Part shown: positions 7,404 through 59,284 of the stretch, in pieces
Position numbering within the stretch: position 1 is the stretch's first letter
How the letters are laid out: each line of letters begins with the position of its first letter
Assembly (NCBI RefSeq): GCF_041886205.1
Contig: NZ_CP169029.1
Source of the DNA: Escherichia coli
GTDB lineage: Bacteria > Pseudomonadota > Gammaproteobacteria > Enterobacterales > Enterobacteriaceae
Direction: 5' to 3' (one strand)
Length of the DNA stretch: 64,000 nt
The notes under the pieces: generated by a model
Database searches by the model: none
Seen by the model: the letters and a program-made list of their open reading frames with translations, nothing else
Told to the model about the DNA's origin: nothing
Program-made: the position numbers and the translations under genes

Positions 7404-7405
7404 AA

Positions 7406-9739: not shown

Positions 9740-9758
9740 TATATTCAAGAGGTATATA

Positions 9759-10877: not shown

Positions 10878-10879
10878 TG

Positions 10880-11845: not shown

Positions 11846-11847
11846 TA

Positions 11848-12357: not shown

Positions 12358-13787
12358 TTGCTGTAGTTATGGCCGGTGGTACAGGCAGTCGTCTTTGGCC
12401 ACTTTCTCGTGAACTATATCCAAAGCAGTTTTTACAACTCTCTGGTGATAACACCTTGTTACAAACGACTTTGCTACGACTTTCAGGCCTATCATGTCAA
12501 AAACCATTAGTGATAACAAATGAACAGCATCGCTTTGTTGTGGCTGAACAGTTAAGGGAAATAAATAAATTAAATGGTAATATTATTCTAGAACCATGCG
12601 GGCGAAATACTGCACCAGCAATAGCGATATCTGCGTTTCATGCGTTAAAACGTAATCCTCAGGAAGATCCATTGCTTCTAGTTCTTGCGGCAGACCACGT
12701 TATAGCTAAAGAAAGTGTTTTCTGTGATGCTATTAAAAATGCAACTCCCATCGCTAATCAAGGTAAAATTGTAACGTTTGGAATTATACCAGAATATGCT
12801 GAAACTGGTTATGGGTATATTGAGAGAGGTGAACTATCTGTACCGCTTCAAGGGCATGAAAATACTGGTTTTTATTATGTAAATAAGTTTGTTGAAAAGC
12901 CTAATCGTGAAACCGCAGAATTGTATGTGACTTCTGGTAATCACTATTGGAATAGTGGAATATTCATGTTTAAGGCATCTGTTTATCTTGAGGAATTGAG
13001 AAAATTTAGACCTGACATTTACAATGTTTGTGAACAGGTTGCCTCATCCTCATACATTGATCTAGATTTTATTCGATTATCAAAAGAACAATTTCAAGAT
13101 TGTCCTGCTGAATCTATTGATTTTGCTGTAATGGAAAAAACAGAAAAATGTGTTGTATGCCCTGTTGATATTGGTTGGAGTGACGTTGGATCTTGGCAAT
13201 CGTTATGGGACATTAGTCTAAAATCGAAAACAGGAGATGTATGTAAAGGTGATATATTAACCTATGATACTAAGAATAATTATATCTACTCTGAGTCAGC
13301 GTTGGTAGCCGCCATTGGAATTGAAGATATGGTTATCGTGCAAACTAAAGATGCCGTTCTTGTGTCTAAAAAGAGTGATGTACAGCATGTAAAAAAAATA
13401 GTCGAAATGCTTAAATTGCAGCAACGTACAGAGTATATTAGTCATCGTGAAGTTTTCCGACCATGGGGAAAATTTGATTCGATTGACCAAGGTGAGCGAT
13501 ACAAAGTCAAGAAAATTATTGTGAAACCTGGTGAGGGGCTTTCTTTAAGGATGCATCACCATCGTTCTGAACATTGGATCGTGCTTTCTGGTACAGCAAA
13601 AGTAACCCTTGGCGATAAAACTAAACTAGTCACCGCAAATGAATCGATATACATTCCCCTTGGCGCAGCGTATAGTCTTGAGAATCCGGGCATAATCCCT
13701 CTTAATCTTATTGAAGTCAGTTCAGGGGATTATTTGGGAGAGGATGATATTATAAGACAGAAAGAACGTTACAAACATGAAGATTAA
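12339..13787 (+). CDS. manC: mannose-1-phosphate guanylyltransferase / mannose-6-phosphate isomerase (bifunctional)
   Basis: 482 aa; N-terminal nucleotidyltransferase motif ([22 protein letters not shown]) and C-terminal cupin domain. Confidence 0.95.
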
Positions 13788-13790
13788 CAT

Positions 13791-15161
13791 ATGAAATCTT
13801 TAACCTGCTTTAAAGCCTATGATATTCGCGGGAAATTAGGCGAAGAACTGAATGAAGATATTGCCTGGCGCATTGGGCGTGCCTATGGCGAATTTCTCAA
13901 ACCGAAAACCATTGTTTTAGGCGGTGATGTCCGCCTCACCAGCGAAACCTTAAAACTGGCGCTGGCGAAAGGTTTACAGGATGCGGGCGTCGATGTGCTG
14001 GATATCGGTATGTCCGGCACCGAAGAGATCTATTTCGCCACGTTCCATCTCGGCGTGGATGGCGGCATTGAAGTTACCGCCAGCCATAATCCGATGGATT
14101 ATAACGGCATGAAACTGGTGCGCGAAGGGGCTCGCCCAATCAGCGGTGATACCGGACTGCGCGACGTCCAGCGTCTGGCAGAAGCCAACGACTTTCCTCC
14201 CGTCGATGAAACCAAACGCGGTCGCTATCAGCAAATCAACCTGCGTGACGCTTACGTTGATCACCTGTTCGGTTATATCAATGTCAAAAACCTCACGCCG
14301 CTCAAGCTGGTGATTAACTCCGGGAATGGCGCAGCGGGTCCGGTGGTGGACGCCATTGAAGCCCGCTTTAAAACCCTCGGCGCGCCCGTGGAATTGATCA
14401 AAGTGCACAACACGCCCGACGGCAATTTCCCCAACGGTATTCCTAATCCGCTGCTGCCTGAATGCCGCGACGACACCCGCAATGCGGTCATCAAACACGG
14501 CGCGGATATGGGCATTGCCTTTGATGGCGATTTTGACCGCTGTTTTCTGTTTGACGAAAAAGGGCAGTTTATCGAGGGCTACTACATTGTCGGCCTGCTG
14601 GCAGAAGCGTTCCTCGAAAAAAATCCCGGCGCGAAGATCATCCACGATCCGCGTCTCTCCTGGAACACCGTTGATGTGGTGACTGCCGCAGGCGGCACCC
14701 CGGTAATGTCGAAAACCGGACACGCCTTTATTAAAGAACGTATGCGCAAGGAAGACGCCATCTACGGTGGCGAAATGAGCGCCCACCATTACTTCCGTGA
14801 TTTCGCTTACTGCGACAGCGGCATGATCCCGTGGCTGCTGGTCGCCGAACTGGTGTGCCTGAAAGGAAAAACGCTGGGCGAACTGGTGCGCGACCGGATG
14901 GCTGCGTTTCCGGCAAGCGGTGAGATCAACAGCAAACTGGCGCAACCCGTTGAGGCGATTAATCGCGTCGAACAGCATTTTAGCCGTGAGGCGCTGGCGG
15001 TGGATCGTACCGATGGCATCAGCATGACCTTTGCCGACTGGCGCTTTAACCTGCGCTCTTCCAACACCGAACCGGTGGTGCGGTTGAATGTGGAATCACG
15101 CGGTGATGTAAAGCTAATGGAAAAGAAAACTAAAGCTCTTCTTAAATTGCTAAGTGAGTGA
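13791..15161 (+). CDS. manB: phosphomannomutase
   Basis: 456 aa; phosphohexomutase active-site motif ([13 protein letters not shown]); notably higher GC than neighbouring cluster genes. Confidence 0.95.
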
Positions 15162-15499
15162 TTATTTACATTAATCATTAAGCGTATTTAAGATTATATT
15201 AAAGTAATGTTATTGCGGTATATGATGAATATGTGGGCTTTTTTATGTATAACAACTATACCGCAACTTTATCTAGGAAAAGATTAATAGAAATAAAGTT
15301 TTGTACTGACCAATTTGCATTTCACGTCACGATTGAGACGTTCCTTTGCTTAAGACATTTTTTCATCGCTTATGTAATAACAAATGTGCCTTATATAAAA
15401 AGGAGAACAAAATGGAACTTAAAATAATTGAGACAATAGATTTTTATTATCCCTGTTTACGATATTATAGCCAAAGTTGTATCCTGCATCAGTCCTGCA

Positions 15500-16300
15500 A
15501 TATTTCACGAGTGCTTTGTTAACTGAATACATGTCTGCCATTTTCCAGATGATAACGACGTCATCACAATTGATGGTAAAACACTTCGGCACACTTATGA
15601 CAAGAGTCGTCGCAGAGGAGTGGTTCATGTCATTAGTGTGTTTCAGCAATGCACAGTCTGGTCCTCGGATAGATCAAGACGGATGAGAAACCTAATGCGT
15701 TCACAGTTATTCATGAACTTTCTAAAATGATGGGTATTAAAGGAAAAATAATCATAACTGATGCGATGGCTTGCCAGAAAGATATTGCAGAGAAGATATA
15801 AAAACAGAGATGTGATTATTTATTCGCTGTAAAAGGAAATAAGAGTCGGCTTAATAGAGTCTTTGAGGAGATATTTACGCTGAAAGAATTAAATAATCCA
15901 AAACATAACAGTTACGCAATTAGTGAAAAGAGGCACGGCAGAGACGATGTCCGTCTTCATATTGTTTGAGATGCTCCTGATGAGCTTATTGATTTCACGT
16001 TTGAATGGAAAGGGCTGCAGAATTTATGAATGGCAGTCCACTTTCTCTCAATAATAGCAGAGCAAAAGAAAGAATCCGAAATGACGATCAAATATTATAT
16101 TAGATCTGCTGCTTTAACCGCAGAGAAGTTCGCCACAGTAAATCGAAATCACTGGCGCATGGAGAATAAGTTGCACAGTAGCCTGATGTGGTAATGAATG
16201 AAATCGACTATAATATAAGAAGGCGAGTTGCATTCGAATGATTTTCTAGAATGCGGCACATCGCTACTAATATCTGACAATGATAATGTATTCAAGGCAG
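15500..16300 (+). pseudogene. decayed H-repeat/ISAs1-family transposase remnant (multiple stops and frameshifts)
   Basis: Translation shows ISAs1/H-repeat transposase blocks ([25 protein letters not shown] ... [12 protein letters not shown] ... YLFAVKGN ... [19 protein letters not shown] ... DELIDFTFEWKGL) broken over three frames; sits between manB and wbdR. Confidence 0.75.
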
Positions 16301-28380: not shown

Positions 28381-28428
28381 TTTCTTATTCCTCTTTAAAC
28401 CTGTCTGAACCGTTATCAACCGCGCAAT

Positions 28429-28462
28429 AAAAAAGCCCCCGGAAGGTGATCTTCCGGGGGCT
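28429..28462 (-). terminator. his operon attenuator (rho-independent terminator between hisL and hisG)
   Basis: On the minus strand a GC-rich hairpin (agcccccggaag ... cttccgggggct) is followed by a U run, directly downstream of the His-rich leader ORF. Confidence 0.85.
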
Positions 28463-28525
28463 TTCTCATGCGTTCATGCACCACTGGAAGATCTGAATGT
28501 CTTCCAGCACACATCGCCTGAAAGA

Positions 28526-28576
28526 CTAGTCAGGATGATGGTGATGATGGTGGTGTTTAAATTGAACGCGTGTCAT
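28526..28576 (-). CDS. hisL: his operon leader peptide (MTRVQFKHHHHHHHPD)
   Basis: Minus-strand reading gives atgacacgcgttcaatttaaacaccaccatcatcaccatcatcctgactag, seven consecutive His codons. Confidence 0.95.
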   Translation of the reverse strand: MTRVQFKHHHHHHHPD

Positions 28577-31243: not shown

Positions 31244-31509
31244 AGAAAAATTATTATGACAAGCCTCTCATTCTCTTGTCATTTCCCCCCCATTTAGGCA
31301 CAATGCGCCGCTGTCAAAAAATGACTAAAAACCGACGTTTCATCAGCGTCGGTTATTTTTTGCTTCAAACCAATCATTCATACCAAGAGGCCGGGCTTCG
31401 TACCGGATAGATATTTACTAAAAATCGACAGTTGTTGTCGCTGAGGAATCCAAAAAAATGGGGCAATTTTTTGCTTACGCGACGGTTATCACCGTAAAGG
31501 AGAATGACC

Positions 31510-39640: not shown

Positions 39641-39890
39641 TTAACAACAGCCTTCTTCTGTATGCAGCAAGGCAAAAAGTTCTGTAACTCCATTGTTATT
39701 AACTGCACTGGTTACTAACACGTTGTGCGCTCCAGCTTCCCGTAACCAACTTTTCACCAAAGATATTTGTTCCATGCTGGCTAAATCTGCTTTGGTTACT
39801 ACTCCAATGACCGGGTGATTCATGGCCCGGTAGGGCGTTTTTACCTCTAATTCCTGCTTCAGCGCTGAGATTCCTGCTTGTTGCCGGAAA
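39641..39890 (-). pseudogene. C-terminal gene fragment (possibly small GTPase-like); 5' end replaced by an IS66 remnant
   Basis: ORF 39641..39997 has a C-terminal part (VIGVVTKADLASMEQISLVKSWLREAGAHNVLVTSAVNNNGVTELFALL) that reads as a protein fragment, while its N-terminal part is encoded antisense to an IS66 transposase fragment. Confidence 0.4.
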
Positions 39891-39892
39891 AG

Positions 39893-40052
39893 CAGGCACC
39901 TGCCGTCTGAACGGTATCGATCCGGAAGCGTATCTGCGCCATATTCTGAGCATACTGCCGGAATGGCCCTCCAACCGTGTTGACGAACTCCTGCCATGGA
40001 ACGTAGTTCTCACCAATAAATAAGCGTCAATACGGTGCTCCGTTGACGCTTA
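39893..40052 (+). mobile_element. IS66-family right-end remnant (3' end of transposase gene plus terminal inverted repeat)
   Basis: Plus-strand translation GTCRLNGIDPEAYLRHILSILPEWPSNRVDELLPWNVVLTNK* matches the C-terminus of the intact IS66-family transposase at 57043..58614 ([33 protein letters not shown]); followed by caatacggtgctccgttgacgcttac, resembling that copy's terminal repeat. Confidence 0.75.
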
Positions 40053-40437
40053 CTTTAATCCGTTTTCTGAGCTTAGATTTTTCTGTTCCTACCCAGACCG
40101 TGGATTTGGAATTCATTTTTTGTCAGGTCAATGCTAATCGTTAAAACGGCCATAACGCACCTCCACTGGAAGGTTTATCAGTAATATCCTACCGTTGCTT
40201 CATGGTCGGGGCGTCCATTCCATTATTATCGGTTTTCCTTTCTGTTTATAAATGAAAACGCCAGCTGTATTCAGGCTGGCGTCAGGGGAAATGAAGCCTG
40301 TTGAGTGAGATTCACCGGTTCTGGTGCAGAAGCTGCAGATGGCGCAGGGTAAGGACATCTTCTCTTGCCTGCTTAATACAGGACAACAGTGCTGTTTCTG
40401 TGGTTAATGGTACTATACCCTGCATCACTGCATTGTC

Positions 40438-40632
40438 TTACAGCAACTGGTGAGGGCTGGCATAAGTTGCCGGTGTTTCGGTAGAGTCACGGTCATCCAC
40501 CACGCGGAGTGAATAACCTTTTTCAGCGGCCTTATTAATCAGTTCAGTGATATTAACACCATCAATGTCAACGACAATGTGCCCCATATCCAGCGCCTGT
40601 ACGTTAACGCTGTCGGCTTCCAGTGTCATCAT
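40438..40632 (-). CDS. hypothetical 64-aa protein
   Basis: ATG preceded by a strong Shine-Dalgarno (ggaggcgaaatgatg on the coding strand); compositionally typical coding sequence; function unknown to me. Confidence 0.45.
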   Translation of the reverse strand: MMTLEADSVNVQALDMGHIVVDIDGVNITELINKAAEKGYSLRVVDDRDSTETPATYASPHQLL

Positions 40633-40749
40633 TTCGCCTCCGGATACTTACCCAGGGTAATGTTATTTACCGTTCTGTAATTGTCGCGGGTCATCAGGCC
40701 GGTCGCCCTGCGAGCCCGGAGGATATCGATGCTGTTTATTAACTGAGAG

Positions 40750-41459
40750 CGGGTATGGGCGCTGCTTCGCAGACAGGCAGAACTTGATGGTATGCCTGCG
40801 ATCAATGCCAAACGTGTTTACCGGATCATGCGCCAGAATGCGCTGTTGCTTGAGCGAAAACCTGCTGTACCGCCATCGAAACGGGCACATACAGGCAGAG
40901 TGGCCGTGAAAGAAAGCAATCAGCGATGGTGCTCTGACGGGTTCGAGTTCTGCTGTGATAACGGAGAGAGACTGCGTGTCACGTTCGCGCTGGACTGCTG
41001 TGATCGTGAGGCACTGCACTGGGCGGTCACTACCGGCGGCTTCAACAGTGAAACAGTACAGGACGTCATGCTGGGAGCGGTGGAACGCCGCTTCGGCAAC
41101 GATCTTCCGTCGTCTCCAGTGGAGTGGCTGACGGATAATGGTTCATGCTACCGGGCTAATGAAACACGCCAGTTCGCCCGGATGTTGGGACTTGAACCGA
41201 AGAACACGGCGGTGCGGAGTCCGGAGAGTAACGGAATAGCAGAGAGCTTCGTGAAAACGATAAAGCGTGACTACATCAGTATCATGCCCAAACCAGACGG
41301 GTTAACGGCAGCAAAGAACCTTGCAGAGGCGTTCGAGCATTATAACGAATGGCATCCGCATAGTGCGCTGGGTTATCGCTCGCCACGGGAATATCTGCGG
41401 CAGCGGGCTTGTAATGGGTTAAGTGATAACAGATGTCTGGAAATATAGGGGCAAATCCA
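40750..41459 (+). mobile_element. insD: truncated IS2 (3' about 710 bp: C-terminal 218 codons of InsD/OrfB plus right terminal repeat)
   Basis: ORF 40792..41448 translates to the IS2 OrfB C-terminus ([53 protein letters not shown]...); upstream in-frame [14 protein letters not shown] is preceded by a stop; IS2 end ...ggggcaaatcca at about 41459. Confidence 0.9.
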
Positions 41460-41792
41460 GCCACGAATGCGGATTTGTTTACGGCCTGCCAAGGAGTTGT
41501 CTGTTATCTCTACTCCGGGGATGTCCTGCAAATTATCGGCTATGGAGGCATTGGTGGAGTTCTGCAATGTTTGTTGGTCAATAACCTGTATAGTCGCCGG
41601 GCTTTCCCAAAGGTTGCTTGCCGAACGATTCGTGGTCACGACGAGCGTCTCTTCGTTGCTGATTTTTGTTTCTGAAGAAGTTGCGGTTGCAGTAGAAACT
41701 ATCCCAGAAATGCATAATGACAGAGTGGAAAGGATATAAATTCGACAAGGTATATTATATAACATTTCATCCCTCATTAATACAAAGTACAA
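41460..41792 (-). pseudogene. yoeA: N-terminal fragment of a TonB-dependent outer-membrane receptor gene, truncated by IS2 (yoeA-like)
   Basis: ORF 41373..41792 minus begins with a signal peptide and plug-domain motifs (ETLVVTTNRSASNLWESPATIQVIDQQTLQ ... DNLQDIPGVEITDNSLAGRKQIRIRG) and then runs into the IS2 end. Confidence 0.75.
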
Positions 41793-41968
41793 ATGATTGC
41801 TGTAATGATAATTATTTTCATTTATGTTCTCATATATCTATAATTATTGTCATCTTCATAAATTGTAAATATCAAACATTTTTGACCTTAATCATGTTTT
41901 TTGATAGATATTTTACGACTGAACATATCCGTCGTTTCCTCTGACTCGTGTCAGTCGGTCTCTGGTTG

Positions 41969-42010
41969 TATCCACGGACCGCACTCTTGACATAAGAGTG
42001 CGGTCCGTGG
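41969..42010. repeat. 42-bp near-perfect palindrome (ccacggaccgcactctt gaca taagagtgcggtccgtgg)
   Basis: Read directly; 17-bp arms around a 4-nt loop, located just upstream of the yoeA-like fragment. Confidence 0.7.
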
Positions 42011-43436
42011 AAAACGGAGTTGAAAAAATGGTGTCTGAAAGAAGGTACCATCATTGTGATGACAAATACTTTGGCGTGGATAATGTAATTAATTGCTGAA
42101 ATTGACCGTATATGCGGTAAGACTCATATCAGTACCAGGTCCGGTTAATTGCTGATACTAATATAAACTTTTTACAAAAGGATGAATGCAGAAGGTTACT
42201 CTAATGGCCAGAGTGATGACAATGATGGTCAGACGTTGACCTGCAGAAACTGCATTTTAATTGGTCTATAAAGTCTGCAAGAGGAATCAGGGTCAGATCA
42301 GTGAGTCTTATCGCGGCCCGAAGCTATGACTGAAAGAAGGCTGGATACAGAATTGCAACAATTTGGCAATGTCAGAACACAGAAGCTTTGCAAGCAGGTG
42401 AAAGGTTATGTCTAGCAAAAGGAGTATATCAGAATATATCTACTGATGTACAAAACACAACAATAGCTTCATGATATATAAATACGTGATGACGAGTGGT
42501 ACTCCGCATGGTTATTTAACTTCTCAGCACCACTAATGATCCTGAGCAACTTCGTATTTGGGCCATTACCATGGAGTAGAAAGCTGTGTCTGAGAATGCA
42601 GAATTTGAGAAAAGAATTCGCTTTCTTGGAGAGCTTCTGAAAATGGCACGCTAACAACGTTTTGTTAAAAAATGTGAATCACTTGCCGGGGCTGCATTTT
42701 CTATTCGAGGAGAATGTTGACGTAGATATTACAGAAATCTCAGCGCATCAGGATAAACTGCTACCTTAGGTCAACCACCAAAAGAAAATACAATACGTCC
42801 AGTTTGTATGCCTTTAATAACACATCTTCTAAATGTTGAAGAATTATCCCGCCTGCTGAAGAACGTTGCTCTGAGTGTGATAAACCTTTTTATTCTTGAT
42901 GATGTCAGCGAGAAGATGGAATATATCCCCGACTGGGTCGTGGTTACCCGGTTAAACATCTGGTGGCGCTAATAAATCTGGCAAGTCACATTCTGTTGAA
43001 TGCTGTGACAGTGCCTTACCGAGAGAGCGAAATTGTGGTGTTCTAGTGCATAGTCGCCACCATTCCGGATAATTCTATTACGTTGTTTTACAAGTTCTTT
43101 TACAGCGCAGATCTGTCGCTGACGTTGAATCAATAGCCTGGATTTCAGAACACAATGCCCGTTTGCTGGTTGTTCCGGCAGTAGCATTAATTCATTATCT
43201 GAATGAAATGTGTCAATCCACAGAAACCGCTGTCAATGACGCATTTTGTCGGACGTTAACACGAGAAAGTCTGGCTATTCCGTAATGCCATCTTATTTCG
43301 TAATGGATTGAGAATGCTGGATTTTTAATTATATTACGCGCAGTATTAATCGCGTAAATGTTTTGCGGTCAGCAACGGTGGGGGATCCATTGTTCTGTTC
43401 AATGAATACCATCATACATTTGAATCAGGAGTCGGT

Positions 43437-45813: not shown

Positions 45814-45877
45814 AAACGAAAAGTCTGATAAAAGCTATACTTAACGGATAGCTTTCGCGGCATAGGAAAGGGACATG

Positions 45878-46810
45878 ATGCGTCGTGTAAATATTCTTTG
45901 CTCATTTGCTCTGCTTTTTGCCAGCCATACTAGCCTGGCGGTAACTTATCCATTACCTCCAGAGGGTAGCCGTTTAGTGGGGCAGTCGTTTACTGTAACT
46001 GTTCCTGATCACAATACCCAGCCGCTGGAGACTTTTGCCGCACAATACGGGCAAGGGTTAAGTAACATGCTGGAAGCGAACCCGGGCGCTGATGTTTTTT
46101 TGCCGAAGTCTGGCTCGCAACTCACCATTCCGCAGCAACTGATTTTGCCCGACACTGTTCGTAAAGGGATTGTTGTTAACGTCGCTGAGATGCGTCTTTA
46201 TTACTACCCACCAGACAGTAATACTGTGGAAGTCTTTCCTATTGGTATCGGCCAGGCTGGGCGAGAAACCCCGCGTAACTGGGTGACTACCGTTGAACGT
46301 AAACAAGAAGCTCCAACCTGGACGCCAACGCCGAACACTCGGCGCGAATATGCGAAACGAGGGGAGAGTTTGCCCGCATTTGTTCCTGCGGGCCCCGATA
46401 ATCCCATGGGGCTGTACGCGATTTATATTGGCAGGTTGTATGCCATCCATGGTACCAATGCCAATTTTGGTATTGGGCTCCGGGTAAGTCAGGGCTGTAT
46501 TCGTCTGCGCAATGACGATATCAAATATCTGTTTGATAATGTTCCTGTTGGGACGCGTGTGCAAATTATCGACCAGCCAGTAAAATACACCACTGAACCA
46601 GATGGCTCGAACTGGCTGGAAGTTCATGAGCCGTTGTCGCGCAATCGTGCAGAATATGAGTCTGACCGAAAAGTGCCATTGCCGGTAACCCCATCTTTGC
46701 GGGCGTTTATCAACGGGCAAGAAGTTGATGTAAATCGCGCAAATGCTGCGTTGCAACGTCGATCGGGAATGCCTGTGCAAATTAGTTCTGGTTCAAGACA
46801 GATGTTTTAA
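45878..46810 (+). CDS. ldtA: L,D-transpeptidase (YkuD domain) ErfK/LdtA
   Basis: About 310 aa; signal peptide and catalytic motif ([24 protein letters not shown]). Confidence 0.9.
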
Positions 46811-46835
46811 GAGCGTTGGTAATTAGAAAGCAAAA

Positions 46836-46860
46836 AGCCTGCTAGAAAGCAGGCTTTTTT
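46836..46860 (+). terminator. rho-independent (likely bidirectional) terminator between erfK and tRNA-Asn
   Basis: Hairpin agcctgct agaa agcaggct flanked by an A run and a T run. Confidence 0.7.
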
Positions 46861-46865: not shown

Positions 46866-46941
46866 TGGCTCCTCTGACTGGACTCGAACCAGTGACATAC
46901 GGATTAACAGTCCGCCGTTCTACCGACTGAACTACAGAGGA
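46866..46941 (-). tRNA. asnV: tRNA-Asn (GUU anticodon)
   Basis: Reverse complement reads as the E. coli tRNA-Asn sequence (tcctctgtagttcagtcggtagaacggcggactgttaatccgtatgtcactggttcgagtccagtcagaggagcca); gene name assigned from position next to nac/erfK. Confidence 0.95.
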
Positions 46942-47267
46942 ATCGTGTGAACGGGGCGCATATTAATGGCAGTGCATGGTGATGTCAAAGGGTGAAATGC
47001 ATTTTTTTGTTTGTTTGCTGTCAATTTCAACAAAGTGGTGAGCTTTCAATCTTATTGGGTAATGAACCATCGTGGTGCATACCCTCCTTTTATAGGGCAG
47101 GGGAACGCGACAGCTGATTAAAGGAGCAAATGACGAATCTATCATAATCTCTTATTTGACAGTTGGTTAGCTTGTACATCAACACCAAAATAAAACTGGC
47201 AAGCATCTTGCAATCTGGTTGTAAGTAATGGCGGCACTTGGGCCGATTCTTAAAAACCGGAGGCAAC

Positions 47268-48185
47268 ATGAACTTCAGACGCCTGAAATACTTCGTAAAA
47301 ATTGTAGATATTGGTAGCCTGACCCAGGCTGCTGAAGTATTGCATATCGCACAACCAGCGCTCAGCCAGCAGGTTGCCACACTGGAAGGTGAGTTAAATC
47401 AACAACTTTTGATCCGTACAAAGCGGGGCGTTACACCAACAGACGCCGGAAAAATTCTCTATACCCATGCGCGGGCCATTTTACGTCAGTGTGAACAGGC
47501 CCAACTGGCGGTGCATAACGTTGGTCAGGCATTATCGGGGCAAGTCTCGATTGGCTTTGCACCAGGAACCGCTGCGTCATCCATCACCATGCCCTTATTA
47601 CAGGCGGTTCGCGCTGAATTTCCGGAGATCGTTATCTATCTTCATGAAAATAGTGGTGCAGTGCTTAACGAAAAATTGATAAATCACCAACTCGATATGG
47701 CGGTGATTTATGAGCATTCCCCTGTGGCTGGTGTATCCAGTCAGGCTTTGCTGAAAGAAGATCTTTTTCTGGTAGGAACTCAAGATTGCCCGGGGCAAAG
47801 CGTTGATGTGAATGCTATTGCGCAAATGAACCTCTTTCTCCCCAGTGATTACAGTGCTATTAGACTTCGTGTTGATGAGGCTTTTTCCCTACGGCGACTC
47901 ACGGCAAAAGTTATTGGTGAAATTGAGTCTATTGCCACGCTTACCGCAGCGATTGCCAGCGGCATGGGCGTTGCAGTATTACCCGAATCGGCCGCGCGTT
48001 CGTTATGTGGCGCAGTAAATGGGTGGATGTCACGCATTACCACTCCTTCCATGAGTCTCTCTTTGTCATTAAATTTACCCGCCAGAGCGAACTTATCGCC
48101 ACAGGCACAGGCAGTGAAAGAGTTGTTAATGTCAGTGATTAGTTCTCCAGTGATGGAAAAAAGGCAGTGGCAATTGGTGAGCTAA
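47268..48185 (+). CDS. nac: nitrogen assimilation control protein (LysR family)
   Basis: 305 aa from MNFRRLKYFVKIVDIGSLTQAAEVLHIAQPALSQQVATLE. Confidence 0.9.
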   Translation: MNFRRLKYFVKIVDIGSLTQAAEVLHIAQPALSQQVATLEGELNQQLLIRTKRGVTPTDAGKILYTHARAILRQCEQAQLAVHNVGQALSGQVSIGFAPGTAASSITMPLLQAVRAEFPEIVIYLHENSGAVLNEKLINHQLDMAVIYEHSPVAGVSSQALLKEDLFLVGTQDCPGQSVDVNAIAQMNLFLPSDYSAIRLRVDEAFSLRRLTAKVIGEIESIATLTAAIASGMGVAVLPESAARSLCGAVNGWMSRITTPSMSLSLSLNLPARANLSPQAQAVKELLMSVISSPVMEKRQWQLVS

Positions 48186-48286
48186 GTGTTATATCGGGAT
48201 GGAATAAGATGCGGGTTTTTATTATTTGTTATGCCGGGCATTAGACTTTAACAATAACGGGAAATCTGAACTGCCCGGAGTTTACC

Positions 48287-49237
48287 GTGAATTTCCAACA
48301 ACTAAAGATAATCCGCGAGGCTGCACGTCAGGATTACAACCTGACAGAGGTTGCGAATATGCTTTTTACCTCACAGTCAGGCGTCAGCCGTCATATTCGG
48401 GAACTGGAGGATGAACTTGGCATCGAAATATTTGTTCGACGAGGTAAGCGACTGCTGGGCATGACTGAACCGGGCAAAGCATTACTGGTCATTGCAGAAC
48501 GTATTCTGAATGAAGCCAGTAATGTTCGTCGGCTTGCAGACCTGTTTACCAACGATACGTCTGGCGTTCTCACTATTGCAACGACGCATACTCAGGCACG
48601 TTATAGCTTGCCAGAGGTCATTAAAGCTTTTCGCGAACTTTTCCCGGAGGTTCGGCTCGAGCTAATCCAGGGGACGCCACAGGAAATTGCGACATTGTTG
48701 CAAAATGGCGAAGCTGATATTGGTATCGCCAGCGAGCGTTTGAGTAATGACCCGCAGCTCGTCGCCTTCCCGTGGTTTCGTTGGCACCATAGTTTGCTTG
48801 TTCCACACGATCATCCCTTGACGCAAATTTCACCATTGACGCTGGAATCAATAGCGAAGTGGCCGTTAATCACTTACCGACAGGGGATTACGGGGCGCTC
48901 ACGTATTGATGACGCATTTGCCCGCAAAGGTTTGCTGGCAGATATTGTATTAAGTGCGCAGGATTCTGATGTCATTAAAACCTATGTTGCTCTTGGGCTT
49001 GGGATCGGATTAGTTGCCGAGCAATCCAGTGGCGAACAAGAGGAAGAGAATTTAATCCGCCTGGATACGCGGCATCTTTTTGATGCTAATACTGTCTGGT
49101 TGGGACTGAAGCGAGGACAACTTCAGCGTAACTATGTCTGGCGCTTTCTGGAACTTTGTAATGCAGGACTGTCAGTTGAGGATATCAAGCGGCAGGTGAT
49201 GGAAAGCAGTGAAGAGGGAATTGATTATCAGATATAG
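48287..49237 (+). CDS. cbl: CysB-like LysR-family regulator Cbl (sulfonate-sulfur utilisation)
   Basis: 316 aa; MNFQQLKIIREAARQDYNLTEVANMLFTSQSGVSRHIRELEDELGIEIF. Confidence 0.9.
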   Translation: MNFQQLKIIREAARQDYNLTEVANMLFTSQSGVSRHIRELEDELGIEIFVRRGKRLLGMTEPGKALLVIAERILNEASNVRRLADLFTNDTSGVLTIATTHTQARYSLPEVIKAFRELFPEVRLELIQGTPQEIATLLQNGEADIGIASERLSNDPQLVAFPWFRWHHSLLVPHDHPLTQISPLTLESIAKWPLITYRQGITGRSRIDDAFARKGLLADIVLSAQDSDVIKTYVALGLGIGLVAEQSSGEQEEENLIRLDTRHLFDANTVWLGLKRGQLQRNYVWRFLELCNAGLSVEDIKRQVMESSEEGIDYQI

Positions 49238-49242
49238 CAAAA

Positions 49243-49267
49243 ATCCCGCTATAAAAGCGGGCTTTTC
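49243..49267 (+). terminator. rho-independent terminator after cbl
   Basis: Hairpin cccgct ataaa agcggg followed by cttttc. Confidence 0.6.
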
Positions 49268-49274
49268 AGGAATT

Positions 49275-49350
49275 TGGCTCCTCTGACTGGACTCGAACCA
49301 GTGACATACGGATTAACAGTCCGCCGTTCTACCGACTGAACTACAGAGGA
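49275..49350 (-). tRNA. asnU: tRNA-Asn (GUU anticodon)
   Basis: Identical 76-nt tRNA-Asn sequence on the minus strand; name assigned from position between cbl and yeeO. Confidence 0.95.
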
Positions 49351-49510
49351 ATCGTTGTTGAGGCACATCTTAACGGCGAAAAATCTTTTGTCAAACCCGA
49401 TTTATAAATTCCCCTACTGTTTGCCGTTTCTATCAACAGTTTGTTGCATTTGCAGACAATTTGTTGGCGAAAATCTTTGCAGCTTTGCTGATTCTCCCTC
49501 ATTATTTGAA

Positions 49511-50998
49511 ATGTGGTTTCACTTTCTGCAATTAAGGTCGGCTTTGAATATCTCCTCTGCTTTACGCCAGGTTGTTCACGGCACTCGCTGGCACGCTAAA
49601 CGCAAGAGCTACAAAGTGTTGTTCTGGCGCGAGATAACCCCGCTTGCTGTTCCTATCTTCATGGAGAATGCCTGTGTCCTGTTGATGGGGGTTCTGAGCA
49701 CTTTTCTGGTCAGCTGGCTGGGAAAAGATGCGATGGCCGGCGTGGGATTGGCGGACAGCTTCAATATGGTCATTATGGCTTTTTTTGCTGCTATCGATCT
49801 TGGTACTACTGTCGTTGTGGCATTTAGTCTCGGTAAGCGGGATCGACGACGAGCGAGGGTGGCGACGCGGCAGTCATTGGTGATCATGACGTTGTTTGCC
49901 GTACTGTTGGCAACGCTTATTCATCATTTTGGCGAACAAATTATTGATTTCGTCGCGGGTGATGCCACGACAGAAGTTAAAGCACTGGCGTTGACTTATC
50001 TGGAGCTGACGGTACTCAGTTATCCAGCAGCTGCCATCACTCTTATTGGTAGCGGGGCACTTCGTGGTGCAGGGAATACGAAAATACCGCTATTGATTAA
50101 CGGTAGCCTGAATATTCTTAATATTATTATTAGCGGCATATTGATTTACGGCCTTTTCTCCTGGCCGGGACTGGAATTTGTCGGGGCAGGGCTGGGTTTA
50201 ACCATTTCTCGTTATATTGGCGCAGTTGCAATTTTGTGGGTGCTGGCGATTGGTTTTAATCCTGCGCTAAGGATTTCGTTAAAGAGCTATTTTAAACCGC
50301 TGAATTTTAGCATTATCTGGGAAGTCATGGGGATTGGTATTCCCGCGAGTGTCGAATCAGTGTTATTTACCAGTGGTCGGTTATTAACCCAAATGTTCGT
50401 TGCCGGGATGGGGACCAGTGTTATTGCCGGAAATTTTATCGCGTTTTCAATTGCGGCTCTTATCAACTTACCCGGAAGTGCGCTCGGCTCTGCTTCTACG
50501 ATCATTACAGGCCGAAGGTTGGGGGTAGGGCAGATAGCGCAAGCAGAGATTCAGTTGCGGCATGTGTTCTGGCTTTCCACTCTTGGATTAACGGCCATCG
50601 CCTGGCTAACGGCTCCCTTTGCCGGGGTTATGGCATCGTTTTACACCCAGGATCCACAGGTTAAACATGTCGTTGTGATTCTGATTTGGCTAAATGCTTT
50701 ATTTATGCCTATTTGGTCCGCCTCATGGGTGCTACCCGCTGGATTTAAAGGTGCTCGTGATGCCCGTTACGCCATGTGGGTTTCGATGTTGAGCATGTGG
50801 GGTTGTCGGGTTGTAGTCGGTTATGTGCTGGGAATCATGCTTGGCTGGGGTGTGGTTGGTGTCTGGATGGGAATGTTTGCCGACTGGGCTGTGCGGGCCG
50901 TGCTGTTTTACTGGCGAATGGTTACTGGACGTTGGCTATGGAAATACCCTCGACCCGAGCCGCAAAAGTGTGAAAAAAAGCCAGTTGTGTCGGAATAA
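49511..50998 (+). CDS. yeeO: MATE-family multidrug/flavin efflux transporter YeeO
   Basis: About 495 aa from MWFHFLQ; 12-TM MATE protein; the ORF-track start at 49355 abuts the tRNA and is rejected. Confidence 0.85.
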   Translation: MWFHFLQLRSALNISSALRQVVHGTRWHAKRKSYKVLFWREITPLAVPIFMENACVLLMGVLSTFLVSWLGKDAMAGVGLADSFNMVIMAFFAAIDLGTTVVVAFSLGKRDRRRARVATRQSLVIMTLFAVLLATLIHHFGEQIIDFVAGDATTEVKALALTYLELTVLSYPAAAITLIGSGALRGAGNTKIPLLINGSLNILNIIISGILIYGLFSWPGLEFVGAGLGLTISRYIGAVAILWVLAIGFNPALRISLKSYFKPLNFSIIWEVMGIGIPASVESVLFTSGRLLTQMFVAGMGTSVIAGNFIAFSIAALINLPGSALGSASTIITGRRLGVGQIAQAEIQLRHVFWLSTLGLTAIAWLTAPFAGVMASFYTQDPQVKHVVVILIWLNALFMPIWSASWVLPAGFKGARDARYAMWVSMLSMWGCRVVVGYVLGIMLGWGVVGVWMGMFADWAVRAVLFYWRMVTGRWLWKYPRPEPQKCEKKPVVSE

Positions 50999-51098
50999 AC
51001 GACAAAATGCAGATTATTTCAGCAAACGATTTCAAATTTAAAAAACAGGCTTTGACATTGTGGGTGGGCATCGCTAATATTCGCCTCGTTCTCACGAT

Positions 51099-51174
51099 TC
51101 CTCTGTAGTTCAGTCGGTAGAACGGCGGACTGTTAATCCGTATGTCACTGGTTCGAGTCCAGTCAGAGGAGCCA
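51099..51174 (+). tRNA. asnW: tRNA-Asn (GUU anticodon)
   Basis: Plus-strand tcctctgtagttcagtcggtagaacggcggactgttaatccgtatgtcactggttcgagtccagtcagaggagcca; followed by two hairpins (about 51181-51210 and 51237-51275). Confidence 0.95.
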
Positions 51175-51626
51175 AATTTTAGTTTTGAGACATCTCTATG
51201 AGTCTCAAAACAGTTAAAAAATAAAAATTATTTTTACCCGGTTACCTTGTAAAAAAGTGACCGGGTTTTTTGATTTCTGTGTTTCGTGCGCTTAATCGAG
51301 TCTCACGCTTCAGTGAGCAAATTGTCCCTCCCCAACAGACATCACGATTCGCAAGGTCAAAAACTCTGTTCCATGAAGTACCGTACAAAGATAAAGAGAA
51401 AAATGCCTTATGCGGGATGTCGCTATCGCGTCTTTATCGGGAAACTATGCGTAATTGCCACTTTGCCTTCTGTAATCAGAAAAAGAAGAACTGGAATTTT
51501 AATAAATATTATTTCTCTGGGAACGGGGGGGTATAATCAATATGACGAGTTGAATATTATATTTTTTATAAGAATTATATGAGATTAAAGAAATCTGCCG
51601 TAAAGACAGATTTCTTTAAAAGATAA

Positions 51627-52343
51627 TTAGAGATTTGCGACGTTATGATAAACTTTTTGTACATCGTCGTCATCTTCAAGGGCATCAACAAGCCCTTCAA
51701 AGATTTCTAAATCTTCTGGGGAAAGCTCAACTTCAGATTGAGCAATCATTTCTAATTCTGTTGTTGAGAACTCAGTGATTCCAGCTGCTTTTAGAGCCGC
51801 GATTCCTTTATGAAGGTCAGTAGGTTCAGTATAAATAACAATGTTACCTTCTTCTTCAGTCACATCACGAACATCAACTTCAGCTTCAAGTAAAATTTCA
51901 AAAATATGGTCAGGGTCTGTCCCTTTAAATACAATCACACCCGTATTGTCAAACATATAGCTGACAGAACCTGCCGCTCCGATATTGCCGCCTTTTTTAT
52001 TGAAAATTGTGCGAACGTTAGCAATCGTACGGTTAACATTTGAAGTCAATGTCTCGGCGATAATCATTGAGCCATTAGGACCAAAGCCTTCATAACGTCC
52101 CTGCACGAACGTTTCATCTCCGCCGCCTTTGGCTTTATCAATTGCTTTATCAATAACGTGCTTTGGAACTTGTGCCTGCTTTGCACGTTCAATAACGAAT
52201 TTTAAAGATGTGTTTAATTCTGGATCGGGTTCACCTTGTTTAGCAGCAGCATAGATTTCTACACCGAATTTTGCATAAATTTTAGACGTTGCACCGTCTT
52301 TAGCCGTTTTTTTAGCAACAATATTGGCCCATTTACGTCCCAC
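51627..52343 (-). CDS. yeeN: YebC/PmpR-family transcriptional regulator YeeN
   Basis: 238 aa; [42 protein letters not shown]. Confidence 0.9.
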
Positions 52344-52685
52344 TGGAATGATCTCCTCGAAAATTTATTTACATTACTGGTAAATCGTTAACATGTGTTA
52401 ATTCAGCATATTATATCATAACAGGAAAAATCTCGTCTATTAGAAATAAAAATATTCTAAAGCCATAATCTTATATTTAATTTTATAAAAACTTATATTG
52501 TTGGCGGGATTTTTTATAATTGTGTTTTGAAAGCATACTTGCTTTTAATATGTGGAAATCATTAAGACGATAATAAAACTCGTATCCGCCCAAGGAAGCA
52601 AACAGCCCACGATTATTGCAGGCTATTTGCCAGGTGTCTTACTTACTCCTTCACATCTATTTCTGATAAGAAGGTTCAGAACTTA

Positions 52686-55872: not shown

Positions 55873-55945
55873 ATGTTTTTAGCATCATTGTTGAGACGTA
55901 TTGCATTTAGTTACTACGATTATAAAGCTTATAATTTCAATATTG
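55873..55945 (+). pseudogene. yeeL: 5' end of a family-9 (heptosyltransferase-like) glycosyltransferase gene, yeeL-like, interrupted by IS66 insertion
   Basis: ATG with SD gggagg; MFLASLLRRIAFSYYDYKAYNFNI is in frame, across the IS and its target duplication, with the ORF downstream of the IS. Confidence 0.65.
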
Positions 55946-55998
55946 GTAACCGGCTCATTTAAACCGTCTGGTCTGTTTCCTCCGGCTCTACAAAAATA

Positions 55999-56676
55999 AT
56001 GTCCATCATTTTTAATGGACACTATCGTATGAAACACCGGACCTGGATCACTGAAGCTTTACGTCTTCACTTTGAAGAACATTTACCCCGGGTTGTGGCC
56101 GGGCGTCGCCTGGGTGTACCAAAATCAACAGTTTGTAGTATGTTCGTGCGCTTTCGGAGAGCTGGCCTTTCGTGGCCTTTGCCCGCAGGCATGTCGGAGC
56201 AGGAACTTGATGCCTGCCTTTACGGACAATTTTCCACGGTACCAGTCGTACGTCCTGAAAGCACCGTTATATCCGAAGCCCCCGTGGTAAAAAAACGTCC
56301 CCGGCGGCCCAACTTCCCTTATGAGTTTAAAATCGCCTTAGTGGAGCAGTCACTGCAGCCCGGAGCCTGTGTGGCGCAGATCGCCCGGGAAAACGGAATC
56401 AACGATAACCTGCTCTTCAACTGGCGCCATCAATACCGGAAAGGTGGCCTGCTGCCTTCCGGAAAAAATATGCCGGCACTGCTTCCCGTGACGTTAACGC
56501 CGGAGCCGGATAATAAAATCCCGGCCCCCGCACAGGAACCAGAGCAGATAAATACACCGTCCGACAGTCTGTGTTGTGAGCTGGTTCTGCCGGCCGGAAC
56601 TCTCAGGCTTAAAGGTAAACTGACGCCGGCGTTATTACAGACACTTATCCGCGAAATAAAAGGGAGCAGCCACTGA
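55999..56676 (+). CDS. IS66-family accessory protein (orf1, HTH-containing); true start uncertain
   Basis: First ORF of the element; stop overlaps the start of orf2 (ATGA). Confidence 0.6.
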   Translation: MSIIFNGHYRMKHRTWITEALRLHFEEHLPRVVAGRRLGVPKSTVCSMFVRFRRAGLSWPLPAGMSEQELDACLYGQFSTVPVVRPESTVISEAPVVKKRPRRPNFPYEFKIALVEQSLQPGACVAQIARENGINDNLLFNWRHQYRKGGLLPSGKNMPALLPVTLTPEPDNKIPAPAQEPEQINTPSDSLCCELVLPAGTLRLKGKLTPALLQTLIREIKGSSH

Positions 56677-57023
56677 TGATATCTCTCCCTGCAGGTTCGC
56701 GTATCTGGCTGGTTGCAGGTATCACCGATATGCGAAATGGCTTTAACGGCCTGGCATCAAAAGTTCAGAACGTCCTGAAGGATGACCCGTTCTCCGGACA
56801 CCTGTTCATCTTCCGCGGACGCCGGGGTGACCAGATAAAAGTGTTGTGGGCTGACAGTGACGGACTGTGCCTCTTCACCAAACGCCTGGAGCGGGGCCGC
56901 TTCGTCTGGCCAGTCACCCGTGACGGCAAGGTGCACCTTACTCCGGCTCAGTTATCCATGCTTCTTGAAGGTATCAACTGGAAGCACCCGAAACGAACGG
57001 AACGCGCTGGAATCCGCATATAA
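56676..57023 (+). CDS. IS66-family Orf2 (TnpB-like)
   Basis: 115 aa; MISLPAGSRIWLVAGITDMRNGFNGLA, characteristic IS66 Orf2. Confidence 0.85.
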   Translation: MISLPAGSRIWLVAGITDMRNGFNGLASKVQNVLKDDPFSGHLFIFRGRRGDQIKVLWADSDGLCLFTKRLERGRFVWPVTRDGKVHLTPAQLSMLLEGINWKHPKRTERAGIRI

Positions 57024-57042
57024 CCCGTTGTAAAGTGAGGAT

Positions 57043-58614
57043 ATGGACACCTCACTTGCTCATGAGAACGCCCGCCTGCGGGCACTGTTGCAGACGCAAC
57101 AGGACACCATCCGCCAGATGGCTGAATACAACCGCCTGCTCTCACAGCGGGTGGCGGCTTATGCTTCCGAAATCAACCGGCTGAAGGCGCTGGTTGCGAA
57201 ACTGCAACGTATGCAGTTCGGTAAAAGCTCAGAAAAACTTCGTGCAAAAACCGAACGGCAGATACAGGAAGCACAGGAGCGAATCAGCGCACTTCAGGAA
57301 GAAATGGCGGAAACGCTGGGTGAGCAATATGACCCGGTACTGCCATCCGCCCTGCGCCAGTCTTCAGCCCGTAAACCGTTACCGGCCTCACTTCCCCGTG
57401 AAACCCGGGTTATCCGGCCGGAAGAGGAATGCTGTCCTGCCTGTGGTGGTGAACTCAGTTCTCTGGGATGTGATGTGTCAGAGCAACTGGAGCTTATCAG
57501 CAGCGCCTTTAAGGTTATCGAAACACAACGTCCGAAACAGGCCTGTTGCCGGTGCGACCATATCGTGCAGGCACCAGTACCTTCAAAACCCATTGCACGC
57601 AGTTATGCCGGAGCGGGGCTTCTGGCCCATGTTGTCACCGGGAAATATGCAGACCATCTGCCGTTATACCGCCAGTCAGAAATATACCGTCGTCAGGGAG
57701 TGGAGCTGAGCCGTGCCACACTGGGGCGCTGGACAGGTGCTGTTGCTGAACTGCTGGAGCCGCTGTATGACGTCCTGCGCCAGTATGTGCTGATGCCCGG
57801 TAAAGTCCATGCTGATGATATCCCCGTCCCGGTCCAGGAGCCGGGCAGCGGTAAAACCCGGACAGCCCGGCTGTGGGTCTACGTCCGTGATGACCGTAAC
57901 GCCGGTTCACAGATGCCCCCGGCGGTCTGGTTCGCGTACAGTCCGGACCGGAAAGGTATCCATCCACAAAATCACCTGGCCGGTTACAGCGGTGTGCTTC
58001 AGGCCGATGCTTACGGTGGTTACCGGGCGTTATACGAATCCGGCAGAATAACGGAAGCCGCGTGTATGGCTCATGCCCGGAGAAAAATCCACGATGTGCA
58101 TGCAAGAGCGTCCACCTACATCACCACGGAAGCCCTGCAGCGTATCGGTGAACTGTATGCCATCGAGGCAGAGGTCCGGGGCTGTTCAGCAGAACAGCGT
58201 CTGGCGGCAAGAAAAGCCAGAGCCGCGCCACTGATGCAGTCACTGTATGACTGGATACAGCAACAGATGAAAACACTGTCGCGTCACTCAGATACGGCAA
58301 AAGCGTTCGCATACCTGCTGAAACAGTGGGATGCACTGAACGTGTACTGCAGTAATGGCTGGGTGGAAATCGACAACAACATCGCAGAGAACGCCTTACG
58401 GGGAGTGGCCGTAGGCCGGAAAAACTGGATGTTCGCGGGTTCCGACAGCGGTGGTGAACATGCGGCGGTGTTGTACTCGCTGATCGGCACATGCCGTCTG
58501 AACAATGTGGAGCCAGAAAAGTGGCTGCGTTACGTCATTGAACATATCCAGGACTGGCCGGCAAACCGGGTACGCGATCTGTTGCCCTGGAAAGTTGATC
58601 TGAGCTCTCAGTAA
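57043..58614 (+). CDS. IS66-family transposase (TnpC)
   Basis: 523 aa; N-terminal leucine zipper, CxxC...CxxC zinc-binding motif (CCPACGG ... CCRCD), conserved DDE region. Confidence 0.9.
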
Positions 58615-58643
58615 ATATCAATACGGTTCTGACGAGTCGCTTA

Positions 58644-59284
58644 CCAATATTGAAAAAACAGACTTTGTTGTCATCCATATTCCCGATCAGATTGGCGATG
58701 CTATGGCCATCTTTCCTGTTATTCGGGCGCTTGAATTGCATAAAATTAAGCATCTTTTAATTGTAACGTCGACAATTAATTTAGAAGTCTTTAATGCGCT
58801 TAAACTTGAACAGACTAAATTAACATTAGTCACAATGACTATGCAGGATCACGCAACATTAAAAGAAATAAAAGATTTAGCAAAGAACATAACACAGCAA
58901 TACGGTACGCCGGATCTTTGCATTGAGGGGATGCGTAAAAAGAACCTGAAAACGATGTTATTTATCAGTCAGTTGAAAGCAAAAACGAATTTTCAGGTTG
59001 TTGGTATAACCATGAATTGCTTCTCCCCTTTGTGCAAGAACGCGTCCCGTATGGATCAGAAACTCCGGGCTCCCGTACCTATGACATGGGCATTTATGAT
59101 GCGTGAGGCGGGTTTTCCAGCAGTCAGGCCAATATATGAATTGCCACTAAGTGAGGATGTACTCGATGAGGTGCGCGAGGAAATGCGATCGTTAGGATCT
59201 TACATTGCGTTCAATTTAGAAGGTAGCTCGCAGGAACGTACATTTTCATTATCGATTGCAGAAAATCTAATAGCAAAAATTTAA
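58644..59284 (+). pseudogene. yeeL: yeeL-like glycosyltransferase-9 pseudogene, central part (resumes after the IS66 insertion)
   Basis: In-frame continuation ...NIEKTDFVVIHIPDQIGDAMAIFPVIRALEL..., reminiscent of heptosyltransferase N-terminal domain. Confidence 0.6.

Follow-up and report, generated by a model that had tools for sequence, protein, structure and literature searches.

The locus described here is almost certainly the core Escherichia coli asnV-asnU-asnW cluster, in the majority, K-12-type order and with all three of its attachment sites empty. It lies within the window, the 64,000-nucleotide stretch of DNA that we analyzed. The species has four identical tRNA-Asn(GUU) genes, of which asnV, asnU and asnW are three, and together with the fourth, asnT, they would provide the sole Asn isoacceptor. 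In the closest relative, HH194M, asnT lies about 3.3 kb past the end of the window and has no integrase beside it. In its K-12-like arrangement the cluster is ordinary and well known; in other strains, islands, inversions or deletions occur at these genes.

Three identical tRNA-Asn genes and their neighbors

According to ARAGORN the 64-kb window has three tRNA genes and no more, each of them a tRNA-Asn with the anticodon GTT, and Rfam RF00005 matches the same three loci with 72.6 bits each, compared to a gathering score of 29 (Table 1). The cloverleaf fold of all three genes is recognized by both tRNA models. The 76-nt sequences are identical to the last letter. Each has its anticodon at position 34-36 and ends in GGAGCCA, so that the 3' CCA is encoded. 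Exact identity among the copies continues 4-6 nt into each flank, which gives exact repeats of 85-86 bp. A preliminary description of this DNA had placed three identical tRNA-Asn genes at the same positions and on the same strands, and ARAGORN, Rfam and letter-for-letter comparison all agree with it. The annotation of near-identical genomes likewise agrees with its statement that the genes are interleaved with nac, cbl and yeeO. The neighbors on the 3' sides, according to the annotation, are ldtA for asnV, cbl for asnU and yeeN for asnW, the last of these separated from the tRNA gene by an AT-rich spacer of 452 bp.

Perfect identity along 76 nt could also arise as an assembly or duplication artefact. 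However, the sequence on either side of every copy is unique, and thousands of independently finished genomes show the same arrangement, the median being four tRNA-Asn places per complete E. coli genome. The probability that the copies are an artefact is thus negligible.

Table 1 Features of the asn cluster and its surroundings (positions in the window)
Feature	Position	Strand	Evidence
ldtA (erfK), conserved neighbor at the 3' side of asnV	45875..46810	+	Mapped annotation from HH194M and TA8571, genomes with 99.9% identity
asnV intrinsic terminator, 12-bp stem then T run	46832..46859	-	Terminator scan; homologous to the asnU terminator
asnV, tRNA-Asn(GUU), 76 nt, encoded CCA	46866..46941	-	ARAGORN; Rfam RF00005, 72.6 bits; identity to the other two copies
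asnV promoter-like site, TTGACA-17-TAATAT	46960..46988	-	Promoter scan, 10/12 matches
nac, LysR-type nitrogen assimilation regulator	47268..48185	+	Annotation transfer from HH194M
cbl, LysR-type regulator	48287..49237	+	Annotation transfer from HH194M
asnU intrinsic terminator	49245..49261	-	Terminator scan
asnU, tRNA-Asn(GUU)	49275..49350	-	ARAGORN; Rfam; identity to the other copies
asnU promoter-like site, TTGACA-16-TAAGAT	49367..49394	-	Promoter scan
yeeO, MATE efflux transporter, between the inverted asnU/asnW pair	49511..50998	+	Annotation transfer from HH194M
asnW promoter-like site, TTGACA-17-TAATAT	51052..51080	+	Promoter scan
asnW, tRNA-Asn(GUU)	51099..51174	+	ARAGORN; Rfam; identity to the other copies
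asnW 3' hairpins: palindromic 51182-51211; GC-rich stem 51236-51266 then U6, probable terminator	51182..51272	+	RNA fold
yeeN, YebC_II-type paralogue, neighbor at the 3' side of asnW	51627..52343	-	Annotation; composition

Promoters and terminators

Judging from the sequence, the asn genes are probably transcribed separately, each as a single-gene unit that starts at a sigma-70-type promoter of its own and ends at its own rho-independent terminator. The promoter scan gives promoter-like matches at all three genes, while the overall number of matches in the region is not above that in shuffles. All four asn genes conserve TTGACA and the -10 region. On the 3' side, asnV and asnU share a terminator, whereas the 3' flank of asnW is unrelated to it and that of asnT is also unique. 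The claim that a terminator directly follows each gene holds for asnV and asnU, where a canonical terminator is found within about 7-15 nt, but not for asnW, where a separate hairpin (51182-51211) comes first and is followed by a GC-rich stem with U6 (51236-51272). The RNA fold of this hairpin region has a free energy of -34.5 kcal/mol (z = -6.4).

Junctions and islands among E. coli genomes

The 6.6-kb region is colinear with many E. coli chromosomes, at 99.9% identity and 100% coverage, and in 4,858 of the 5,426 complete E. coli genomes that we surveyed at least 80% of it is covered in one place. Under an 80% coverage rule, by which a junction with an insertion of up to about 1 kb can still pass, the empty junction is intact in 4,664 genomes for asnV (86%), 5,176 for asnU (95%) and 4,970 for asnW (92%).

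The 3' end of each asn gene serves as attB for P4-type tyrosine integrases, which the pks island, HPI/ICE elements and further islands carry. The pks island is seen at an asn site in Nissle, SCU-101 and HH97, with the HPI additionally present in Nissle and HH97, and other islands occupy asn sites in EH53, TW01221 and PapRG-06-5. These direct sightings bear out the view that asn tRNA genes serve as integration sites for genomic islands, in agreement with the literature, where they are an integration hotspot with pks in asnW, asnV or asnU (PMC8209727, PMC8461471). An occupied asn site is also seen in 2016C-3878.

Empty attachment sites in the window

A tblastn search of the window with three asn-associated P4-type integrases returns only noise (E >= 2.3), i.e. 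no integrase homologue. The 17-nt 3' end of the tRNA, with up to three mismatches allowed, occurs in the window only inside the three full genes, with no orphan copy, and blastn-short, queried with the final 25 or 45 nt of the gene, gives no other meaningful match there. As a positive control, the same 17-mer test detects an orphan att copy beside ldtA in the occupied strains SCU-101 and EH53. The junctions in the window are contiguous, with no strain-variable foreign DNA between any tRNA gene and its conserved neighbor. Since the window has neither an integrase nor an extra tRNA 3' end, the proposal that all three sites are unoccupied is supported, and no combination of an att duplicate and an integrase remnant was found in the window beside any of the three copies. 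The strain thus lacks the pks island and every other island at asnV, asnU or asnW. Its order is of the ancestral type. For this window itself the cluster matters little.

"Unoccupied" applies strictly relative to present-day E. coli, as the low-GC 3' flank of asnW could be a very old acquisition. If so, asnW would not be truly empty, and the stretch 51175-52685, from the 3' end of the tRNA to the amn stop and including yeeN, would be a decayed ancient island that has lost its integrase and direct repeat. The GC content is 36% across these 1.5 kb, beginning at the exact 3' end of the tRNA, compared to 49-50% in yeeO and amn, and the flank is unlike the terminator common to asnV and asnU. In addition, YeeN is of the YebC_II subtype; S. 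pyogenes encodes a single YebC subtype, and E. coli has YebC_I too (PMC12234827). However, the searches described above gave neither an integrase homologue nor an att repeat in the window, and the asnW-yeeN junction is conserved in the 4,970 genomes already counted, so the low-GC yeeN stretch is not strain-variable. Salmonella Typhimurium also encodes yeeN (PMC12234827), which implies that any acquisition predates the species and that the yeeN stretch by now belongs to the core genome. Nor does a unique flank in itself point to an old island, as the 3' flank of asnT is also unique. We do not count the low-GC stretch as evidence of occupancy and keep it solely as a low-confidence rival, improbable next to an asnW site that is empty.

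A degenerate island at 39.6-43.3 kb, flanked by tmaR and cobU, was a further candidate for an asnV-linked island, which we rejected: intact core cobUST and ldtA intervene, and there is no integrase. It sits between pduV and cbiP remnants, which is the position of the pdu/cbi cluster in pdu-bearing strains.

Recombination between the asn repeats

Perfect repeats of 85-86 bp within 4.3 kb would be substrates for homologous recombination, presumably RecA-dependent. In the inverted pairs, recombination between asnU and asnW would flip yeeO alone, and between asnV and asnW it would flip a whole block of 4,309 bp, which is exactly the span of the cluster described here. In the direct pair, recombination between asnV and asnU would delete nac-cbl. 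The window itself has undergone no inversion and no nac-cbl deletion.

We searched the 5,426 genomes for recombinant junctions with 1.15-kb junction constructs. The breakpoints of the rearranged forms fall within the tRNA repeats, and the rearrangement classes may overlap. Comparison of the orientation of yeeO between strains shows that it alone is inverted in 34 genomes (junction yeeO 5'/tRNA/yeeN), spread over several sequence classes. The earlier suggestion that the asnU/asnW pair is a substrate for inversion is thus confirmed. The 4,309-bp asnV-asnW segment is inverted in 265 genomes (junction nac-upstream/tRNA/yeeN), almost always together with the pks island; SE15 is the single genome that has its inverted junction free of an island. 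A third recombinant junction, ldtA/tRNA/yeeO 5', is found in 35 genomes. At least one genome has a clean nac-cbl deletion of 2,409 bp, the product of asnV and asnU. The preliminary description had overlooked the commoner, already published asnV-asnW inversion, and also the nac-cbl deletions from the direct asnV/asnU pair. Ou et al. 2006 are said to have first noted the orientation difference. Earlier papers have already described the integration hotspot as well as the 4,309-bp inversion, the latter in PMC8209727 and PMC8461471, and the asnW/asnV inversion arises within UTI89 cultures without overexpression of a Fim recombinase (PMC6458436). For the yeeO-only inversion and the nac-cbl deletion we found no report in the literature.

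As the asn repeats invert in nature, even within cultures, any one genome could have flipped, or flipped and reverted, and the order in the window could itself derive from an earlier inversion between asn copies. This order is, however, common to about 86-95% of genomes per junction, K-12 included, and the alternatives are rare (34 and 265 genomes), with the larger inversion tied nearly always to pks carriage and its island-free form confined to SE15. A derived order is accordingly very unlikely compared to an ancestral one.

It is conceivable, though we put it forward only tentatively, that the three asn copies form a small natural recombination module, in which orientation decides the flank faced by each att site and hence which islands are fixed, and which recurrently yields the yeeO-only inversion and the nac-cbl deletion. 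If this is true, low-frequency flipped and deleted subpopulations would be expected in a culture of the strain. The survey shows that in wild E. coli tRNA repeats of 85 bp suffice for recurrent inversions and for the loss of nac and cbl by deletion, a natural double regulator knockout. The locus is also a convenient typing marker, since a junction PCR or junction search gives island occupancy and orientation together.

Comparison with known systems

The cluster equals the E. coli K-12 locus ldtA/erfK-asnV-nac-cbl-asnU-yeeO-asnW-yeeN in the order and strands of its genes, in the tRNA sequence and in the flanks. K-12 records are 99.7-100% identical to the junction queries from the window, and there is no difference within the span of the cluster. 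Outside this span, the strain differs from K-12 in an ISCro1 in yeeL and in the tmaR-cobU island, which is reduced to about 3.6 kb.

B2 strains with the pks island in configuration 1A / class Ic, for example Nissle 1917 (Auvray 2021, PMC8209727; Wami 2021, PMC8461471), use the same three asn genes and share the 4,309-bp block, but there the block is inverted. These strains carry a P4-type integrase and the 54-kb pks island between the yeeO-proximal tRNA gene and ldtA, and next to ldtA they have a 17-nt orphan att copy; all of this is absent from the window. The HPI of Yersinia and E. coli uses the same family of attB, the 3' end of tRNA-Asn; in E. coli it sits next to yeeJ at asnT (Nissle, HH97), and asnT lies past the end of the window.

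The asn segment also resembles programmed switches such as fimS, hyxS, ipuS and phage invertase segments, in which a segment bounded by inverted repeats occurs in both orientations in the population. Here exact inverted repeats of 85-86 bp surround the segment and both orientations are found among genomes, and the asnW/asnV inversion turned up in the same screen as the programmed switches (PMC6458436). Unlike in those switches, whole tRNA genes form the repeats here, and the segment re-aims no promoter. Annotation and tblastn with the asn-site integrases reveal no dedicated recombinase in or beside it. From their positions, the promoters of yeeO, nac, cbl and the tRNA genes all travel with their genes, and all genes are predicted to stay expressed in either orientation. 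The asn inversion behaves as general homologous recombination and not as a switch.

Results

According to ARAGORN the whole window contains just three tRNA genes, all tRNA-Asn(GTT), and the coordinates, strands and names given to them in the preliminary description are all correct by ARAGORN, Rfam and annotation. The three genes are the same over all 76 nt, and the exact match extends 4-6 nt into the flanks of each, so that the perfect repeats measure 85-86 bp. The 6.6 kb around the cluster aligns over 100% of its length with 99.9% identity to many E. coli chromosomes, and the queries that span its junctions match K-12 records at 99.7-100% identity. The annotated order in the closest genomes, TA8571 and HH194M, is cobU-cobS-cobT-ldtA-tRNA-Asn(-)-nac-cbl-tRNA-Asn(-)-yeeO-tRNA-Asn(+)-yeeN-amn-shiA-yeeL-yeeJ. 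The locus is the K-12 asnV-asnU-asnW region on the opposite strand; we take these names to be those of K-12, as also asnT for the fourth copy, which lies about 3.3 kb past the window end as placed in HH194M. The observation is confirmed and its interpretation supported: the cluster is the canonical set of asn tRNA genes already described in E. coli, and it carries no island, which is its commonest state.

Features of the asn tRNA cluster and of the rest of the window
Feature	Position	Strand	Motif or evidence
asnV, tRNA-Asn(GTT)	46866-46941	-	ARAGORN; Rfam tRNA model, 72.6 bits
asnU, tRNA-Asn(GTT)	49275-49350	-	ARAGORN; Rfam tRNA model, 72.6 bits
asnW, tRNA-Asn(GTT)	51099-51174	+	ARAGORN; Rfam tRNA model, 72.6 bits
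asnV promoter, consensus-like		-	TTGACA-17-TAATAT; sequence scan
asnU promoter, consensus-like		-	TTGACA-16-TAAGAT; sequence scan
asnW promoter, consensus-like		+	TTGACA-17-TAATAT; sequence scan
asnW palindromic hairpin	51182-51211	+	RNA fold
asnW GC-rich stem and U6	51236-51272	+	RNA fold
Low-GC stretch with yeeN	51175-52685		36% GC
Low-GC window start	1-16000		36-39% GC
JUMPstart RNA element	3251-3288		
His leader	28427-28550		
sRNA STnc240	31289-31363		
tmaR (yeeX)-cobU island	39642-43285		
ISCro1, 2.7 kb	55946-58644		
8-bp flanks of ISCro1	55938-55945, 58645-58652		

Canonical terminators, homologous to each other, lie about 7-15 nt 3' of asnV and asnU, and the 3' structure of asnW folds with -34.5 kcal/mol (z = -6.4). 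Since each gene has a promoter-like site, with elements conserved across all four asn genes when flanks are compared, and a terminator-like hairpin, the three look like independent single-gene transcription units. GC skew is +0.053 on the plus strand across the whole window, which marks this as the leading strand; asnV and asnU are therefore head-on to replication and asnW co-directional. In a relative asnT (L003 21485-21560) is also head-on, so that asnW is the only co-directional copy of the four; a mostly head-on orientation is unusual for tRNA genes.

All three genes had been described as unoccupied, and neither an att duplicate nor an integrase remnant is present beside any of them in the window. 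A tblastn search of the whole window with three P4-type integrases, from the occupied asn sites of Nissle (pks, the colibactin island), TW01221 and 2016C-3878, returned only noise (best E = 2.3). The last 17 nt of the tRNA, which we take to be the att core of the high-pathogenicity island (HPI), occur in the window with up to three mismatches only within the asn genes, and blastn-short queries made of the final 25 or 45 nt of the tRNA gave no other meaningful match there. The 17-mer can detect an att remnant, because it found perfect orphan copies about 55 bp after ldtA in two occupied genomes: one marks the distal end of the pks island in SCU-101, the other the end of a different island in EH53. 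The asnV, asnU and asnW sites are empty.

The 1.5 kb that separates asnW from the stop of amn, including yeeN, might still be a very old acquisition at the asnW att site. GC is 36% in this stretch, against about 49-50% in its neighbors, and 40% in the yeeN coding sequence; the low-GC stretch starts directly after the last base of asnW and reaches as far as the amn stop. However, it contains neither an integrase nor an att repeat, 92% of genomes have the asnW junction intact, and Salmonella has yeeN as well (PMC12234827), which makes such an origin unlikely. An ancient acquisition may have brought yeeN as a YebC_II-type paralogue; it would leave the verdict of empty sites in present-day E. coli unchanged.

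Occupancy was surveyed in 5,426 complete E. coli genomes with 1-kb queries spanning each empty junction, scored as intact if at least 80% of the query was covered in one place. The asnV junction (ldtA side) is intact in 4,664 genomes (86%), the asnU junction (cbl side) in 5,176 (95%) and the asnW junction (yeeN side) in 4,970 (92%). Subtracting recombinant classes leaves roughly 460 broken junctions at asnV, 180 at asnU and 155 at asnW, rough figures as classes can overlap; these are presumably islands in standard orientation. The yeeO-proximal tRNA is occupied by an integrase and the pks island in Nissle, SCU-101 and HH97; Nissle and HH97 also have the HPI beside a yeeJ remnant. An integrase follows the tRNA after yeeO in 2016C-3878, and at asnV there is a RepL/H-NS island in EH53 and a PTS/hxlB island in PapRG-06-5. 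TW01221 is occupied at both asnV and asnU (L008 5329-18404) by two different islands: the asnV island has an RHS element and an integrase that is disrupted, and the asnU island, with DUF6387, H-NS and RepL, belongs to the family of the asnV island in EH53.

Recombinant junctions were sought in the same genomes with synthetic queries built from the window sequence. The proposal that asnU and asnW form an inversion substrate is borne out by the yeeO 5'/tRNA/yeeN junction of a yeeO-only inversion in 34 genomes, spanning several identity classes (99.8% down to 96.9%), with the reciprocal cbl/tRNA/yeeO 3' junction in the same strains; in LCP22S3_I2 the breakpoints lie within the tRNA repeats. The nac-upstream/tRNA/yeeN junction of a whole-block inversion between asnV and asnW, which flips the 4,309-bp segment that is exactly the span of the cluster, occurs in 265 genomes. 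This inversion also alters the head-on/co-directional balance of the asn genes. An island, which was pks in each inverted genome examined for it, almost always accompanies the inversion, since SE15 (L013 7501-12953) is the only genome with an inverted block, no island at ldtA and hence the ldtA/tRNA/yeeO 3' junction. SE15 did not rearrange by a simple exchange between tRNA genes, because a partial duplicate of about 1 kb of the yeeO 3' end adjoins its tRNA and yeeN. The ldtA/tRNA/yeeO 5' junction, with nac-cbl absent between ldtA and yeeO, is found in 35 genomes. In the natural blood isolate AH20K059 (L011 5501-7400), recombination between the direct repeats at asnV and asnU has cleanly removed 2,409 bp with nac, cbl and one tRNA-Asn, and three asn copies remain in the genome; the other genomes with this junction are more complex.

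Elsewhere in the window, the IS66-family element ISCro1 (tnpA, tnpB, transposase) interrupts the glycosyltransferase-9 pseudogene yeeL. Its two 8-bp flanks align to a single stretch of TA8571, where the site is empty, and this indicates an 8-bp target duplication. HH194M, the closest relative, has the same IS about 155 bp away in yeeL, and the 9-kb stretch with ISCro1 in yeeL is at least 80% covered in one place in only 9 of the 5,426 genomes. The island between tmaR and cobU, judged by its yeeS/yeeT/cbeA/cbtA/yeeW genes, resembles the CP4-44 of K-12, but is cut down here to pieces that total about 3.6 kb. They comprise yeeW, truncated cbtA, part of an IS3-family transposase, a fragment of a TonB receptor, and remnants of pduV, an IS4 element and cbiP. 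None of these pieces is an integrase or is linked to asnV; at the same place HH194M carries about 30 kb. The JUMPstart element in the low-GC first 16 kb of the window fits a gene cluster for O-antigen or another surface polysaccharide, located before the his operon in window coordinates.

Discussion

The analysis shows three identical genes, each between flanks of its own, att sites that are empty and, in other genomes, rearranged forms with breakpoints located in the repeats. The rearrangements probably arise by general homologous recombination between the 85-86-bp repeats, as the block neither contains nor adjoins a recombinase gene and the inversion known from the literature is independent of Fim recombinases. 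Since each tRNA promoter would move together with the flank that holds it, and yeeO, nac and cbl would have promoters of their own, inversions should be nearly neutral for expression. They would change the 3' flank faced by each att site and the orientation of each gene relative to replication.

Neither the role of these genes as an integration hotspot nor the large inversion is new. The preliminary description of asn tRNA genes as island integration sites agrees with the occupancy in genomes with broken junctions and with published work: pks integrates into asnW, asnV or asnU, whose sequences are 100% identical (Auvray et al. 2021, PMC8209727). Inversion of the 4,309-bp region, our whole-block inversion, is reported there as well; Wami et al. 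(2021, PMC8461471) describe it as affecting yeeO-tRNA(Asn)-cbl-gltC, and an asnW/asnV inversion arose in UTI89 cultures without Fim recombinase overexpression in the SVRE study (PMC6458436), which credits the orientation difference between CFT073 and UTI89 to Ou et al. 2006. Full-text literature searches found no description of the yeeO-only inversion or the nac-cbl deletion, which suggests that both may be unreported. To the known picture the present analysis adds these two minor recombinant forms and the frequencies, over 5,426 genomes, at which each state occurs.
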